Of a stretch of DNA of 64,000 bases, positions 11,981 through 62,399 are shown piece by piece. Both the position numbers and the translations under genes were made by a program. Location: the NCBI GenBank assembly GCA_964016885.1, contig OZ024747.1, forward strand, positions 51,708,001-51,772,000, written 5' to 3'. The notes below the pieces were generated by a model. That model saw only the letters and a list, made by a program, of their open reading frames with translations, made no database searches and was not told the origin of the DNA. Within the stretch, counting starts at the first letter, position 1; each line of letters opens with the position of its first letter. The DNA is from Eledone cirrhosa. Lineage: Eukaryota.

Positions 11981-12184
11981 GTGGTAGAACATTGGAAAGT
12001 AATATCCGTAGTGGTAGAGCACTCAGTCTATGGGACGAGTTAGGTAGAAGTGGTTACACAACAGTTAGTTCACCATACCGAGAACAGTTGTTTCACCTTA
12101 GCGGATCCTGCATTACGAGCTGTGGATCCGCTAAGGTGAAACAATTGTTCTTGGTATGGTGAACTAACTGTTGTGTAACCACTT
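11981..12184. mobile_element. Tail plus hairpin element in (TA)n, with a degenerate hammerhead at 12114-12156 (+)
   Basis: 12048-12108 is inverted at 12124-12184. TACGAG-CTGTGGA-TCCGCTAAGGT-GAAA-CAATTG-TT-CTTGGTA (A6 replaced by U). A related copy lies at 62313-62399. Confidence 0.75.
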
Positions 12185-12562
12185 ATATATATATATATAT
12201 ATATATATATAAAAAAGGTATATATTGAGTTAGGTACTCAAAATAGTCTCTTCGAACAAAATACCCCAAAAATAGAGATTTGAACACATATATGTATATA
12301 TCTGTGTTCGTTTTTCTTTTATATATATATATATATACACACACATACACACACACACAGAAATGCATACATATATTCCCCATATATTTCCATCAATGGT
12401 CTATGTTTCTATTCCAGACATCAAGTAGAAACACCAAAGTATTGAGTAATATATGACAGAAAGTTACTGTGATCAAATATCAAATACACAAAGAGTATCA
12501 TATAACTGACTTAAAAAAAATATGGCGGACTGAGCTATACTCCTTCTACAAGACGATGTAAG

Positions 12563-12758
12563 ACGAGTTTTGGCTGAACATTTATAGGCTGCCTATGAAG
12601 GGGTGATGCTAGAGCTGTGAAATCTTGCAGGTATTAATTACATTTCTTATTAATAACAGCATTGTTTCTTTCCAGGGATTAAGTTGAAAAATAAACTTCA
12701 TTCGTTCATTCCATGAGAGTATGTTGGTCAGCATATGAACTTTTTAGCCGACCCCCGT
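12563..12758 (+). mobile_element. Internally deleted mariner derivative (MITE-like)
   Basis: Left part matches 51266-51352 (TGAAGG.GTG.TGCTAGAG.TGTGAAATCTTGC). Right part matches 52415-52488 (AAAATAAAC.TCATT...AGCCGACCC). Confidence 0.7.
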
Positions 12759-13669
12759 GCGATGCATTTGAAGTATCAGTACTAAAAGAAATATTTGTGA
12801 TAATTGGCTGATATATAGAAGAAACCAGTTAGTTCCAAAGTTATTAAAACAAGCAAAATACTGGCCCGAACTGGAAGTTTCCACAGAAATAGTAATATTG
12901 ACAATCTATATATCTGTGTCAACATCCCTTATTTGTTGTATGGTATCACACAGAATGAATCTCTTAAACAAATGCAACGAAAATAAATACATCAACCAAG
13001 TGCTCAAATGGGAATAAAAGAACATTGTACGGGTTAATGGTGGACTCTTCAAGATCTAATCATTTTCCGATAACATTCCACTGCATGGCCTTTGAGGGAA
13101 ATGACATTTACTGTATGCTCGGTTTGACCCATGCCTCATGTGTGAAACCAGACAGGCAAAAAGTACTAAAGACACTTGGCTGTAAAGTACACGTAATTGA
13201 AATGTCTAATCTCTACCAAACACTTAACATGTTTCTACCTGAGAATTATGCGAAAACCCCACGTTTCTGGACATCAATCAAGCACTAACTATTATAACAT
13301 TAATCCTACTCGAGGTTTATGCTAAAAGTCCACTATTTTGGGGAACATTCAGTCACTAGCAAGTTAACTCAAAGTTCAGGTGAATCGAATAATTGAATAT
13401 TCATCGTCAAATCTGACGGAGGCCCATTCCTATTCATCTTTATAGAAGTCCAATGACTGGTAGAGTGACAGTTTATATAAAATATCTTGTTATACTTATT
13501 TATGCCCCTTTAACTCTCAGTCCATGTCCTACTGGAAGCGAGAGTTGGTAAAAGATTCAATCTTTGTGAATCAATAAAATAAATGCCAATCAATCTTAAA
13601 CATATTTCTCCCTAAAATATGTTTGGTCTCGGTAATGTTAGATACCATTGGTTGTATCAACCAGAGTAT

Positions 13670-14200
13670 GTTGACAAGAAATTGTGGACAATACAATAAT
13701 AATTATTTCTACTTAATAGCACAAGACCAGCAATTACTCATGACAGTACTGGTATTTTATTTTATCAACCCCGTAAGGATGAAAGGCAAAGTTAACCATG
13801 GCGGGATTTCAAACAATATTTTAATAAAACAGTTAATAGATTCAGGATGGTCCTGAACATATCAGACGCCAGTCTTTCACCAGATGATAGAAACAAAAGA
13901 AGAATTTATCATGCCGTGGAAAGAGGAGAAAATTTTAATGATGTACAATATATAGGTTCCTATATCTTGTAAATCATTAAAACTGATTAGTACCAATACA
14001 CTTGATAAAAGGTTACATAGAAATGTATGTACACATGAACACACACACACACACAGACACACACACAAACACAAACACACACACACGCACACACATACAC
14101 ACACACACACACAGGCGTCCGATATGTTCAGGATCGTCTTAAATCTATTAACTGTTATACTAAAATATTATTATTGTATTGTCCACAATTTCTGGTTAAC
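13670..14200. repeat. Inverted repeat whose left arm is split by a 5'-truncated SINE (13703-13810, minus)
   Basis: 13670-13702 plus 13815-13870 together equal the reverse complement of 14114-14200. Confidence 0.75.
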
Positions 14201-58530: not shown

Positions 58531-58825
58531 TGTGTGTCTGTGTATTAGTATGTTTCAGCGTGTGTGTATATGTACGTCTGTGTATGGGTATATGTGAGTT
58601 CAGGATGTGTGTGGTGTGTACGTTTATGTATGTGTGTATATGTGTTTCAGCGTGTGTGTGCGTGTATACGTATGTGTATGTATGTATGTGTGTATACGTC
58701 TGTGTATGTGTTAATGTGTGTTTCAGCTTGTGTATGTGTACGCTTGTAGTATGTATTTATGTACTTTGCTTTCTGTGCATATCTCTATATGTGTGTCAGT
58801 ATTTTGAATGTGTATGCAAGAATAC

Positions 58826-61625
58826 ATGTGTATAAGTATATATGTGTACAAGTATATATATGTGTATAAGTATATATGTGTACAAGTATATATGTGTACA
58901 AGTATCTGTATGTACAAGTATATATGTGTACAAGTATCTGTGTGTACAAGTATCTATGTGTACAAGTATATATGCGTATAAGTATATATATGTACCAGTA
59001 TATATGTGTATAAGTATATATATGTACAAGTATATATGTGTACAAGTATATATGGGTACAAGTATCTATGTGTACATGTATATATGTGTACACGTATATA
59101 TGTGTAAAAGTATATATATGTACTAGTATATATGTGTACAATTATATACGTGTACAAGTATATATGTGTACAAGTATATATGTGTACAAGTATCTGTGTG
59201 TACAAGTATCTGTGTGTACAAGTATATATGTGTACAAGTATATATGTGTACAAGTATCTGTGTACAAATATATATGTGTACAAGTATATATGTGTACAAG
59301 TATCTGTGTGTACAAGTATATATACGTACAAGTATATATGTGTACAAGTATATATGTGTATAAGTATATATGTGTACAAGTATATATGTGTATAAGTATA
59401 TATGTGTACAAGTATATATATGTGTACAAGTATCTGTATATACAAGTATATATGTGTACAGATATATATGTGTACAAGTATTTGTGTGTACAAGTATATA
59501 TGTGTACAAGTATATATGTGTACAAGTATCTGTGTACAAGTATATATGTGTACAAGTATATATGTGTACAAGTATCTGTGTATACAAGTATATATGTGTA
59601 CAAGTATATATGTGTACAAGTATCTGTGTGTACAAGTATATATACGTACAAGTATATATGTGTACAAGTATATATGTGTATAAGTATATATGTGTACAAG
59701 TCTATATGTGTATAAGTATATATGTGTACAAGTATATATGTGTACAAGTATCTGTATATACAAGTATAGATGTGTACAGGTATATATGTGTACAAGTATT
59801 TGTGTGTACAAGTATATATGTGTACAAGTATATATGTGTACAAGTATCTGTGTACAAGTATATATGTGTACAAGTATATATGTGTACAAGTATCTGTGGA
59901 AAACAAGTATATATGTGTACAAGTATATATGTGTACAAGTATATGTATACAAATATATGTGTGTAAAAATATATGTGCACAAGTATCTGTGTGTACAAGT
60001 ATGTATTGTACAAATATATATGTGTACAAGTATCTGTGTGTATAAATATATATGTGTACAAGTATATATGTATATAAGTATATATGTGTACAAGTATCTG
60101 TGTACAAGTATATATGTGTACAAGTATCTATGTGTACAAGTATCTATGTGTACCAGTATATATGTGTATAAGTATATATCTGTACAAGTATATCTGTGTA
60201 CAAATATATATGTGTACAAGTATATATGTGTACAAGTATCTGTGTGTACAAATATATATCTGTACAATTATATATGTGTACAAGTATATGTGTGTACAAG
60301 TATATATGCGTACAAGTATATATGTGTACAAGTATATATGTGTACAAGTATATATGTGTACAAGTATCTGTGTATACAAGTATATATGTGTACAAGTATA
60401 TATGTGTACAAATATATATGTGTACAAGTTTCTGTGTATACAAGTATATATGTGTACAAGTATATATGTGTACAAGTTTCTGTGTATACAAGTATATATG
60501 TGTACAAGTATATATGTGTACAAGTTTCTGTGTGTACAAGTATATATGTGTACAACTATATATGTGTACAAGTATATATGTGTACAAGTATCGGTGTACA
60601 AGTATATATGTGTACAACTATATATGTGTACAAGTATATATGTGTACAAGTATCGGTGTACAAGTATATATGTGTACAAGTATCTGTGTACAAATATATG
60701 TGTACAAGTATATATGTGTACAACTATATATGTGTACAAGTATATATGTGTACAAGTATATATGTGTACAAGGATATATGTGTATAAGTATATGTGTGTA
60801 CAAGTATATATGTGTACACGTATATATGTGTACAAGTATCTGTGTACAAGTATATATGTGTACAAGTATATATGTGTACAACTATATATGTGTACAAGTA
60901 TATATGTGTACAACTATATATGTGTACAAGTATCGGTGTACAAGTATCTGTGTACAAGTATATTTGTGTACAAGTATATATGTGTACAACTATATATGTG
61001 TACATGTATATATGTGTACAAATATCTGTATTCAAGTATATATATGTACAAGTATATAAGTGGACAAGGATATATGTGTACAAGTATATATGTGTACATG
61101 TATATATGTGTACAAGTATATATGTGTACAAGTATATATGTGTACATGTATATATGTGTACAAGTATATATGTGTACAAGTATCTGTGTACAAGTATATA
61201 TGTATACAAGTATATATGTGTACAAGTATCAAATGTGTACAACTATATATGTGTATATGTATATATGTGTACAAGTATATATGTGTACAAGTATATATAT
61301 GCAAGTATATATGTGTACAAATATCTGTGTACAACTATATATGTGTACCAGTATATATGTGTACAACTATATATGTGTACAAGTATATATGTGTACAAGT
61401 ATCTGTGTACAAGTATCTGTGTGTACAAGTATCTGTGTGTGTACAAGTATATATGTGTACATGTATCTGTGTGTGTACAAGTATATGTGTACAAGTATCT
61501 GTGTGTGTACAAGTATCTGTGTACAAGTATATATGTGTACAAGTATCTGTGTACAAGTATATATGTGTACAAGTATCTGTGTGTGTACAAATATATGTGT
61601 GTGTACAAGTATCTGTGTGTACAAG
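58826..61625. repeat. 16-bp minisatellite (GTACAAGTATATATGT)
   Basis: Direct inspection; 14-18 bp variants occur. Confidence 0.95.
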
Positions 61626-61917
61626 CAAGTGCCTTGTTTCAGGGGGGTACCAGGGGACAATTGCCCCCCCCCCCTCTTCACAAACTTGTTCAAACGTCTA
61701 TGTTTATTTGTTGTTTAGTTAATATAATAAATTCGTTGTAAGCTTATTTTTTTTATATCTGAACTTCATTTGAATACATAAAATTTAATTAGCGTAACAT
61801 TTTACTTATGCGATAGGGTCCAGGAAAGGCACCAGAAGCAATACTAACATGCTTCTTTAAGAATCAAAAAATGTTGGTTTGTCCCCCCTCACACTTTTAG
61901 GGCAAACGAGGCCCCTG
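61626..61917. mobile_element. Putative hAT-type MITE
   Basis: TIRs CAAGTGCCTTGTTT / (reverse complement) CAGGGGCCTCGTTT, 11/14 identical. 8-bp flanks TGTACAAG / TGTGCAAG. Confidence 0.6.
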
Positions 61918-62312
61918 TGTGCAAGTATCTGTGTGTGCGTCTATATATATATGAACGAGACCGTGTATATATATCTGTGAGGGTCTGTTACTCGTGTGTT
62001 TGTAGGTCTCTGTAGGTGTACGAGAGAGGTATATACAATACCTTGTAATCCACAGCTCAGTGGGGATGTGTGCTGCCAAATATAGAAACCACAATGAAAA
62101 ATACGTGATATTTGTGTGTAAAGGTGTGAGATACAGACACAGAGAAGGAGACAGGAAGTAGGTTTAAAATATAGCATGAGAGCAGATAAACTATTATAAG
62201 GACCAGCCCTACACACACATATATATATATACATAGACATACAAACACACATACATATATATATATATGTATATATATATATATATATATATATAGAGAG
62301 AGAGAGAGAGAG

Positions 62313-62399
62313 GTAGAACACTGGAAGGTAATATCCGTAGCGGTAGAGTTAGGTAGAAGTGGTAACACAACAGTTGAACTAACTGTTGTGTTACCACTT
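62313..62399. mobile_element. Collapsed copy of the 11981-12184 tail plus hairpin element
   Basis: Same tail GTAGAACA.TGGAA.GTAATATCCGTAG.GGTAGAG...TTAGGTAG; hairpin AAGTGGTAACACAACAGTT/AACTGTTGTGTTACCACTT; no ribozyme left. Confidence 0.8.

Follow-up and report, generated by a model that had tools for sequence, protein, structure and literature searches.

A 64,000-nucleotide (nt) stretch of the Eledone cirrhosa genome (GenBank assembly GCA_964016885.1, contig OZ024747.1, positions 51,708,001 to 51,772,000 of the forward strand; hereafter the window) contains head-to-head insertions of Penelope-like elements (PLEs), including one broken full-length copy, and in families A to D the arms of these insertions end a few nt before a short stem-loop. 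Among relatives of the full-length copy, the motifs of which fit the Hydra clade of PLEs, this stem-loop usually occurs twice between the hammerhead ribozyme and the start codon, with most of the natural 3′ ends lying directly before one copy or the other. We consider it probable that such hairpins position the starts of complementary DNA (cDNA) synthesis. A fixed boundary by itself is ordinary PLE biology; a clade-wide double hairpin that predicts both ends of the element is apparently undescribed.

Masked self-comparison of the window, which is microsatellite-rich animal DNA, returned 12 inverted-repeat elements besides pairs of short interspersed elements (SINEs), namely A1, A2, B1, B2, C1, C2, D1, E, F, G, H, and K, to which the fragments D2 and D3 are related (Table 1). 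An earlier note on this DNA had claimed that insertions of one family end their inverted arm at the same point and leave an unpaired tail on one side only, and exact walks along the paired arms confirmed it. The last identical base on the tail arm and the other arm was 43212/38284 in A1, 16946/15714 in A2 (16953/15707 with mismatches allowed), 22792/22470 in B1, 53206/52865 in B2, 12048/12184 in C1, 62357/62399 in C2, 18938/19259 in D1, 44687/43843 in G, and 37439/37863 in K. The arms of B1 and B2, previously placed at 22791 and 53206, stop in identical register, 3 nt before the ACTC of the stem-loop, as do those of C1 and C2 (7 nt, with slight TA ambiguity), previously placed at 12048 and 62356. 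A substitution and TA microhomology limit the agreement between the ends of A1 and A2 to ~7 nt, and the two positions formerly paired there, 43211 and 16948, are not homologous. The tails, which had been put at 45–100 nt, measure ~39–93 nt. Ten window elements have both outer ends intact and nine of these carry the tail on one side only (P = 0.011 against an independent 50:50 choice, in a small sample); the symmetric E has none or two, and H and F are irregular. The direct copy of the tail at the 5′ start, which the same note had reported for the full element and a mini-element, was recovered in A1, G, and K. As the two hairpins of G lie 98 nt apart, its 45-nt tail was probably cut short by the D3 fragment.

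The full-length copy, A1, is laid out as an inverted arm, 13 nt of pseudo-long terminal repeat (pLTR) with the tail, an open reading frame (ORF), a 3′ untranslated region (UTR) with the hammerhead, the tail, and (TA)n. Its ORF, which is broken, carries reverse transcriptase (RT) motifs followed by a YIG-type endonuclease (EN), the order (RT, then GIY-YIG) of EN+ PLEs, and the protein shares 34–36% identity with 11 relatives (37% to P0003 in the EN linker); the Pfam RVT_1 match reached only E = 0.005, below the cut-off. A pLTR or partial tandem with an optional inverted copy and tail, also typical of EN+ PLEs, is seen in A1, G, and K. The Hydra clade has been defined by a C-terminal EN, a CxCX5C linker, no CCHH motif, CxxC and CxH around E and N, RWK, DKT, and insertion at (TA)n (PMC8557442 section 11). 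The motifs of A1 fit this clade, with two of them slightly changed. It has CNCRRKSEC in the linker, no CCHH, and CNLC..E..N..CQH, with RWR and EKT where the definition has RWK and DKT; the majority of its relatives carry RWK together with DKT or DKS. Insertion at (TA)n is seen in the flanks and in (TA)n loose ends of reads. Hydra elements are generally below 3 kb, a tendency and not a rule (PMC8557442), and the A1 unit, with its long 3′ UTR and Asn-rich insert, is 3.75 kb. This (AAT)n insert (41121–41545) lies between the RT thumb and the EN linker and recalls the N-rich inserts of Adineta Penelope elements (PMC3846280), and a 20-nt tandem duplication (40541–40580) directly precedes the first stop codon. 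The non-coding families B, C, D, and G have no ORF attached and may be mobilised by a Hydra RT, on the sole basis of the hairpin motif they share.

The general form of that motif was recognised only by reading the related loci. Altogether, 78 loci, all short-read consensus contigs, were fetched as the best 80 of 278 stretches, 67 of which had a collinear match (57 families), with 11 permuted or split loci excluded; no Hydra relatives were found in viral contigs. The 67 loci carry a stem-loop, GCTC-N(8-26)-GAGC-RCT, between the hammerhead and the ATG, usually in two copies. In the 50 scored families, the strict motif gave 61 matches in the 10,350 nt upstream of the ORF, with one in antisense and none in 104,237 nt of ORF, and 200 shuffles yielded a mean of 0.045 and a maximum of one. 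Among the 41 families with at least 140 nt upstream, 20 hold two strict copies, 13 hold one, and eight hold none, several of those short of two carrying near variants. The two hairpins are spaced 55–74 nt apart (n = 22).

Natural 3′ ends were located by comparing 3′ ends with the 5′ copy of the same family (n = 22), and 18 of them fall −1 to +8 nt before a hairpin (17 within −1 to +4), eight at the first copy and ten at the second. In 14 of the 18 families every end lies at a hairpin (P ~2e-10 under a uniform null of 0.118), P values that are flattering in that the motif was first spotted by eye on loci later counted and the range of −1 to +8 was fixed after looking. Three inverted 5′ arms outside this set, read by eye, fit as well: L014 and L061 are tail-only arms on full-length copies and stop 6–10 nt short of hairpin 2; L052 has, like A1, a tail on one side only, and its arm stops ~5 nt short of hairpin 1. 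Six published Hydra consensus sequences were likewise read by eye (PMC8557442 File S7). Hydra-1_Ajap begins 2 nt before hairpin 1 and contains both hairpins; three others (Hydra-2_Ajap, Hydra-2_Amil, and Hydra-1_Crog) have their ends past hairpin 1; Hydra-1_Amil stops short of any hairpin, and Hydra-1_Obim offers a degenerate candidate only. In a separate arrangement, locus L024 (2936–3117) has two Hydra ends placed tail to tail over one (TA)n tract.

Window families A to D carry the variant ACTC..GAGT-GCT, which starts 3–7 nt after the arm end (6–13 in A2). In A1, the hairpins are 96 nt apart, the tail is 92–93 nt long, and the tail end lies 8 nt before hairpin 2. A blind covariance model built from 69 non-window hairpins gave 11 matches in the window at E up to 10, of which five are at predicted sites, namely D1 (E = 0.001), D3 (0.18), A2 (0.55), A1 (0.9), and hairpin 2 of G (E = 3). 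The strict window-type motif, ACTC..GAGTGCT, was not found between the hammerhead and the ATG of the 78 other loci, apart from two stray matches. The first stem pair is A-U in window families A to D, G-C in 66 of the 75 anchored instances elsewhere, and U-A in four, from two metagenome families (L012 and L056), and the predicted fold contains the stem in B2, C1, D1, and G, partly in A1, and not in A2, B1, or D3. Pairing in the stem is plausible but thinly supported, and the motif may be recognised by its structure or by its sequence.

The copies in the window are independent insertions and not the products of segmental duplication. Shared flanks, which the earlier note had itself set against its reading, were looked for and not found: the flanks of the A, B, and C copies do not align (best local scores 17–24). 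In these families (INDEPENDENCE), 11 + 25 + 1 sites (37) are common to both arms of one copy and none is common to the same arm across copies. The note was right on independent insertion, on the PLE identity, and on the inverted pLTR with its one-sided tail. Reads and contigs from four runs (at most three samples) were also compared with positions 39561–43330. Loose ends behind 43212 with a (TA)n consensus amounted to 232 (X5) and 272 (X6) reads, the largest among the 24 loose-end entries listed, and depth falls from bin 43089–43214 to bin 43215–43330 by 3.4-fold in contigs and by 5- to 6-fold in restriction-site-associated DNA (RAD) reads, which count molecules and not loci and whose depth ratio is also distorted by peaks at AATT restriction sites. 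Depth over the hammerhead is tens to hundreds of times that over the ORF; most copies are therefore short 3′ fragments. No joint of the tail to the 5′ UTR is present among the 15 joints listed, and the tail end could not appear as a loose end since the reference continued into (TA)n. Peaks of apparent molecule ends at 40643, 42954, 43051/43054, 43207, and 43280 were rejected as biology; the sites are AATT or one substitution off and were treated as RAD restriction sites.

The inner turn-around point had been described as varying widely, which holds for the strand-switch joints scattered in the contigs (39612/43076, 39833/41899, 43032/43260, 43037/43118, and 43072/43121) but not for B1 and B2, where it is nearly identical, or for the bodies of D1 and D2, which start within a few nt of each other. 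In A2 (905 versus 140 nt), D1, D2, and G, the copy without the tail exceeds the tail-bearing arm in length; in A1 and K it is the shorter of the two, and no decision is possible for B1, B2, C1, and C2, which are near-perfect palindromes with loops of 0–15 nt. The tail thus sits on the shorter arm in four of the six decidable cases in the window. Many inner breakpoints (A2, B1, B2, C1, D1, and G; 43050–43125) lie inside the hammerhead core or at most ~85 nt 5′ of it, not at the cut site, to which loose read ends before 43092 and 43097 can be added.

Type I hammerheads are predicted in the pLTRs by descriptor matches in A1, B2, D1, E, and K and by eye in C and G; no Rfam hammerhead is among the 150 of 297 matches listed for the window. 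The distance from the predicted cut to the arm end is 58 nt in A1, 56 in B2, and 53 in D1, with 35 in C, 113 in K, and 198 in G (the C and G ribozymes being read by eye). The earlier note had suggested plotting the arm ends relative to the hammerhead cleavage site; since this distance varies from 35 to 198 nt across families, the ribozyme does not set the boundary and a fixed distance was rejected as the rule, the boundary tracking the hairpin motif instead. From the predicted cut to hairpin 1, the distance is 33–56 nt in 14 of 15 other families.

A mechanism that would account for these ends is target-primed insertion of Hydra-clade PLEs and their short hammerhead-bearing derivatives. The template RNA, tandem or circular, would run from a 3′ end through the tail into the next 5′ end and carry two RCTC-loop-GAGY-RCT stem-loops, each of which may anchor the RT such that cDNA starts a few nt 5′ of the stem, with base pairing between an AU-rich patch and the nicked (TA)n target as an aid. 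Starting ahead of hairpin 1 would give the tail-less end and starting ahead of hairpin 2 the tail-bearing end, with the tail length equal to the hairpin spacing. Both target strands would be nicked, each priming one cDNA, one per start site, and the two 5′-truncated cDNAs would be joined in head-to-head orientation, in many cases where the template has a palindrome close to the hammerhead. The earlier note had proposed two primings or a fold-back from one initiation point; two primings are favoured here, although with two defined points, the arm end and the tail end. While the boundaries, the conservation of the motif, its distance from the ends, and the independence of the copies are directly observed, the action of the motif as an RNA structure, its binding by the RT, and the coupling of the two primings are what we infer. 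Coupling is suggested by one-sidedness in nine of ten elements, where independent choice of sites would give at most half. More tentatively, a single ribonucleoprotein with two RTs, each on one tandem hairpin of the same RNA and each primed by one nicked strand, may be involved. If true, this would explain why the tail is on one side and has a length particular to each family, how head-to-head palindromes arise (both RTs would stall at one structure), and why the cDNA with the tail, which trails, is in many cases the shorter one. It would amount to RNA-encoded twin priming, and a portable start signal would then exist in the group that is sister to telomerase.

Several points weigh against hairpin-positioned starts. 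Four of the 22 natural ends miss the hairpins (L008, L063, L065, and L073), and among the 41 families strict copies are absent from eight and single in 13, some contigs being truncated or rearranged. Within the window, A1 is the only element allowing the tail end to be compared directly with hairpin 2, and K has a fixed one-sided tail without the motif, which is therefore not universal there. The blind model missed B1, B2, C1, and both 5′ hairpins of A1, four of its five matches at predicted sites having E of at least 0.18, and the stability of the tail fold is unremarkable in seven of eight cases (z −0.3 to −1.8). A formal pair count found no double-sided change in the stem of only 4 bp, because the U-A rows were misaligned. 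The mechanism itself rests on sequence evidence.

An alternative is that a single cDNA started from the tail end, snapped back, and was copied until hairpin 1, as a stop or boundary element, halted it. The palindromes of B and C are the best evidence for such a fold-back and fit the second strand invoked by the earlier note; palindromes at the inverted junction have been read as self-priming (PMC3846280), and in A1, K, and L052 it is the long copy that bears the tail. No copy made by fold-back can be longer than its template, however, so that the longer tail-less copies of A2, D1, D2, and G call for two primings, unless later deletions shortened the tail-bearing arms, which could have happened. 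The tail on the shorter arm thus favours two primings. Fold-back is further at odds with the tail-only inverted arms on the full-length copies L014 and L061, with eight sense-strand 3′ ends downstream of intact ORFs that stop before hairpin 1, and with the PAc element, in which both sites are RT starts (PMC11167929), and is considered unlikely. We also regard it as rather improbable that the motif is read as DNA, with the GIY-YIG endonuclease cutting a cDNA intermediate beside each motif and resolution leaving the one-sided tail. EN-mediated resolution was proposed for the tail by Craig et al., the tail was required for recognition by EN in D. virilis (a result cited in PMC11167929), and the weak covariation found here would allow sequence recognition; yet the PAc ends coincide with RT starts measured in vitro (PMC11167929), and the first-pair changes keep complementarity in two metagenome and four window families.

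Self-cleavage by the hammerhead, placing the boundary at a fixed distance, is largely refuted as the main rule and is very unlikely. The similar distances in A1, B2, and D1 and the ends of H and L073 within 5 nt of the predicted cut speak for it, outweighed by the spread in C, K, and G, the range to hairpin 1 in the other families, the many arms that cross the cut site (most of them do so), and hammerhead mutants that left PAc insertion unchanged (PMC11167929). There is similarly little to recommend the idea that a hairpin-shaped element moves or duplicates as a unit and merely inherits its ends. The inner breakpoints common to B1/B2 and to D1/D2 would suit it; the 37 sites shared by copy and none by arm, the unrelated flanks, and the many inner joints combined with one outer end in the reads would not. 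Homogenisation of the arms by gene conversion is possible.

In LINE-1 twin priming, both target strands prime cDNA and give an inversion without duplication, the second priming site being variable, whereas the window elements have two fixed sites and arms that are copies of one sequence. The one-sided footprint and the idea of two primings are already published. A one-sided tail of 30–40 bp on a unit with an inverted truncated copy has been described for canonical EN+ PLEs (PMC3846280; PMC8557442), which resemble the window elements in the partial tandem, the adjacent inverted 5′-truncated copy, the tail at one end, the pLTR hammerhead, and (TA)n targets (PMC8557442 Fig. 2). They differ in that window tails reach 67–93 nt in most families, and the portions of these accounts consulted name no positioning motif. 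The protein of PAc, a Poseidon element of Anolis carolinensis, cuts and extends both target strands in vitro from two internal start sites, the tail being the sequence between the starts (PMC11167929). PAc, which also requires RNA 3′ of the start, resembles our elements, as interpreted above, in the two starts flanking the tail, the cutting and extension of both strands, and an AT-rich target; it belongs to a different clade, and its starts lie in the ORF at an AC-rich stem-loop, whereas the putative Hydra start sites are in the 5′ UTR, each before its own copy of a repeated hairpin. Published Hydra elements, among which an Octopus family is listed, share the C-terminal EN, the motif set, the hammerhead, and (TA)n (PMC8557442 section 11, File S7), and A1 departs from them in RWR/EKT for RWK/DKT and in its unit length. 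As for G and K, both are short and non-coding with a type I hammerhead, like non-LTR retrozymes and non-autonomous PLE derivatives (PMC7229834; bioRxiv 10.64898/2026.07.22.740005). They differ from retrozymes, which are marked by tandem arrays with a hammerhead and by circular RNA, as single partial tandems with an inverted arm, and no arrays of either occur within the window.

To our knowledge, the PLE transposition cycle is largely unresolved, with only one element reconstituted and its RNA binding motif merely bracketed. A short motif that occurs in two copies and predicts both ends in dozens of families names the nucleotides to mutate, and makes the way in which the tail and the inverted pLTR arise directly accessible to experiment. 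A practical rule is gained as well for curating the boundaries of Hydra elements and for assigning non-coding mini-elements to the clade that mobilises them. The literature searched contained no description of a repeated hairpin at PLE ends, Repbase and some older PLE papers being outside that search; the PAc sequence could be relevant to how new the motif is. Both hairpins can be seen in the published Hydra consensus sequences but go unmentioned in the text searched (PMC8557442).

Table 1. Positions of the inverted-repeat elements, their parts, and related fragments in the window.
Feature	Position	Strand	Remarks
A1 inverted 5′-truncated tail-less arm	38284..39458	-	copy of 41888-43212
A1 5′ partial pLTR (~13 nt) and direct tail copy	39459..39564	+	hairpin 1 starts at 39477
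A1 hairpin 2, GCTC..CAGC, one mismatch	39573..39593	+	8 nt past tail end, 96 nt past hairpin 1; missed by blind model
A1 broken ORF, RT and C-terminal GIY-YIG, Hydra-clade motifs	39621..~42015	+	stops at 40581, 40893, and later; frameshifts near 41120-41330; Asn-rich insert
A1 type I hammerhead (predicted)	43098..43161	+	core 43105, predicted cut after 43154
A1 3′ tail	43213..43305	+	hairpin 1 variant ACTC..GAGT at 43217; then (TA)n
A2	15707..17046		~905-nt tail-less arm (SINE inside at 15917-16109) head-to-head with 140-nt arm and tail; hairpin 1 at 16960
B1 fold-back copy	22470..22869		tail 22793-22869; hairpin 1 at 22796, GAGT changed to GATT
B2 perfect palindrome	52865..53282		hammerhead core 53069, predicted cut after 53150; tail 53207-53282; hairpin 1 at 53210
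C1	11981..12184		tail 12047-11981 on minus strand; hairpin 1 at 12040; arms ~62 bp
C2	62312..62399		19-bp arms; tail 62356-62312 with 19-nt deletion removing hairpin loop and 3′ half
D1	18850..19259		tail-bearing arm 135 nt, tail-less copy 187 nt; hairpin 1 at 18933 (minus)
D2	53331..53622		inverted tail, almost no arm, joined to tail-less body
G mini-element, unit ~550 nt, sense on minus	43843..44732		long tail-less copy with 5′ tail copy; shorter inverted arm, tail probably truncated; hairpins at 44386 and 44288 (minus), 44696 (plus)
D3	44732..44830	+	20-nt arm stub and D-family tail abutting G; hairpin 1 at 44754
K mini-element, sense on minus	37400..37863		long copy with ~39-nt tail and 5′ tail copy; inverted arm short, without tail; hammerhead core 37583; Hydra hairpin motif absent
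E hammerhead-bearing fold-back	2853..3287		both arms end at same point, the exception to one-sidedness

Several minor observations concern the hammerheads. That of family B (53069–53150) has an unusually long stem II region, with 63 nt between the core boxes. The ends in H (63672–64000) and at L073:2574 lie 4–5 nt before the predicted cut and possibly mark a minor third start at the cleaved RNA end; the other arm of H continues in the direction of the window edge and of a tail start there that resembles that of B. One further family is represented by three short hammerhead fragments (5136–5186, 15107–15151, and 23966–24017), which end ~10 nt past the predicted cut beside (TA)n and have no inverted arms.

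Further relics accompany the elements of Table 1. At 44688–44830, the tail of G is fused straight to the D-family stub and tail, through either a template jump between the RNAs of two families or a later insertion into the G tail. Element F (13492–14200) holds a SINE in its left arm, and 321 bp including part of that SINE are duplicated 6.8 kb away (20308–20628) at 95.6% identity, a local duplication; the longer arm of F runs on into ATACTCTG, as family B does. Another element, J (11595–11820), combines an A/D-like hammerhead (minus strand) with a GAGTGCT-containing tail (plus strand), and its arms overlap little. A relic at 22100–22225 has a degenerate hammerhead-like stretch and an ACTC..GAGT-ACT hairpin at 22154, the second-best match of the blind model, and ends ~65 nt past that hairpin at (TC)n without an inverted arm. 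A 180-nt interspersed repeat, which is probably a SINE, is also present in the window in ~20 copies (742–1307, 6335–7028, 8352–8986, 15396–15574, 15917–16109, 20127–20711, 35503–35693, 45099–45275, and 46092–46283). Among the 150 of 297 Rfam matches listed for the window were microRNA models on microsatellites and one tRNA-like match, the latter (792–864) scoring above the Rfam threshold.

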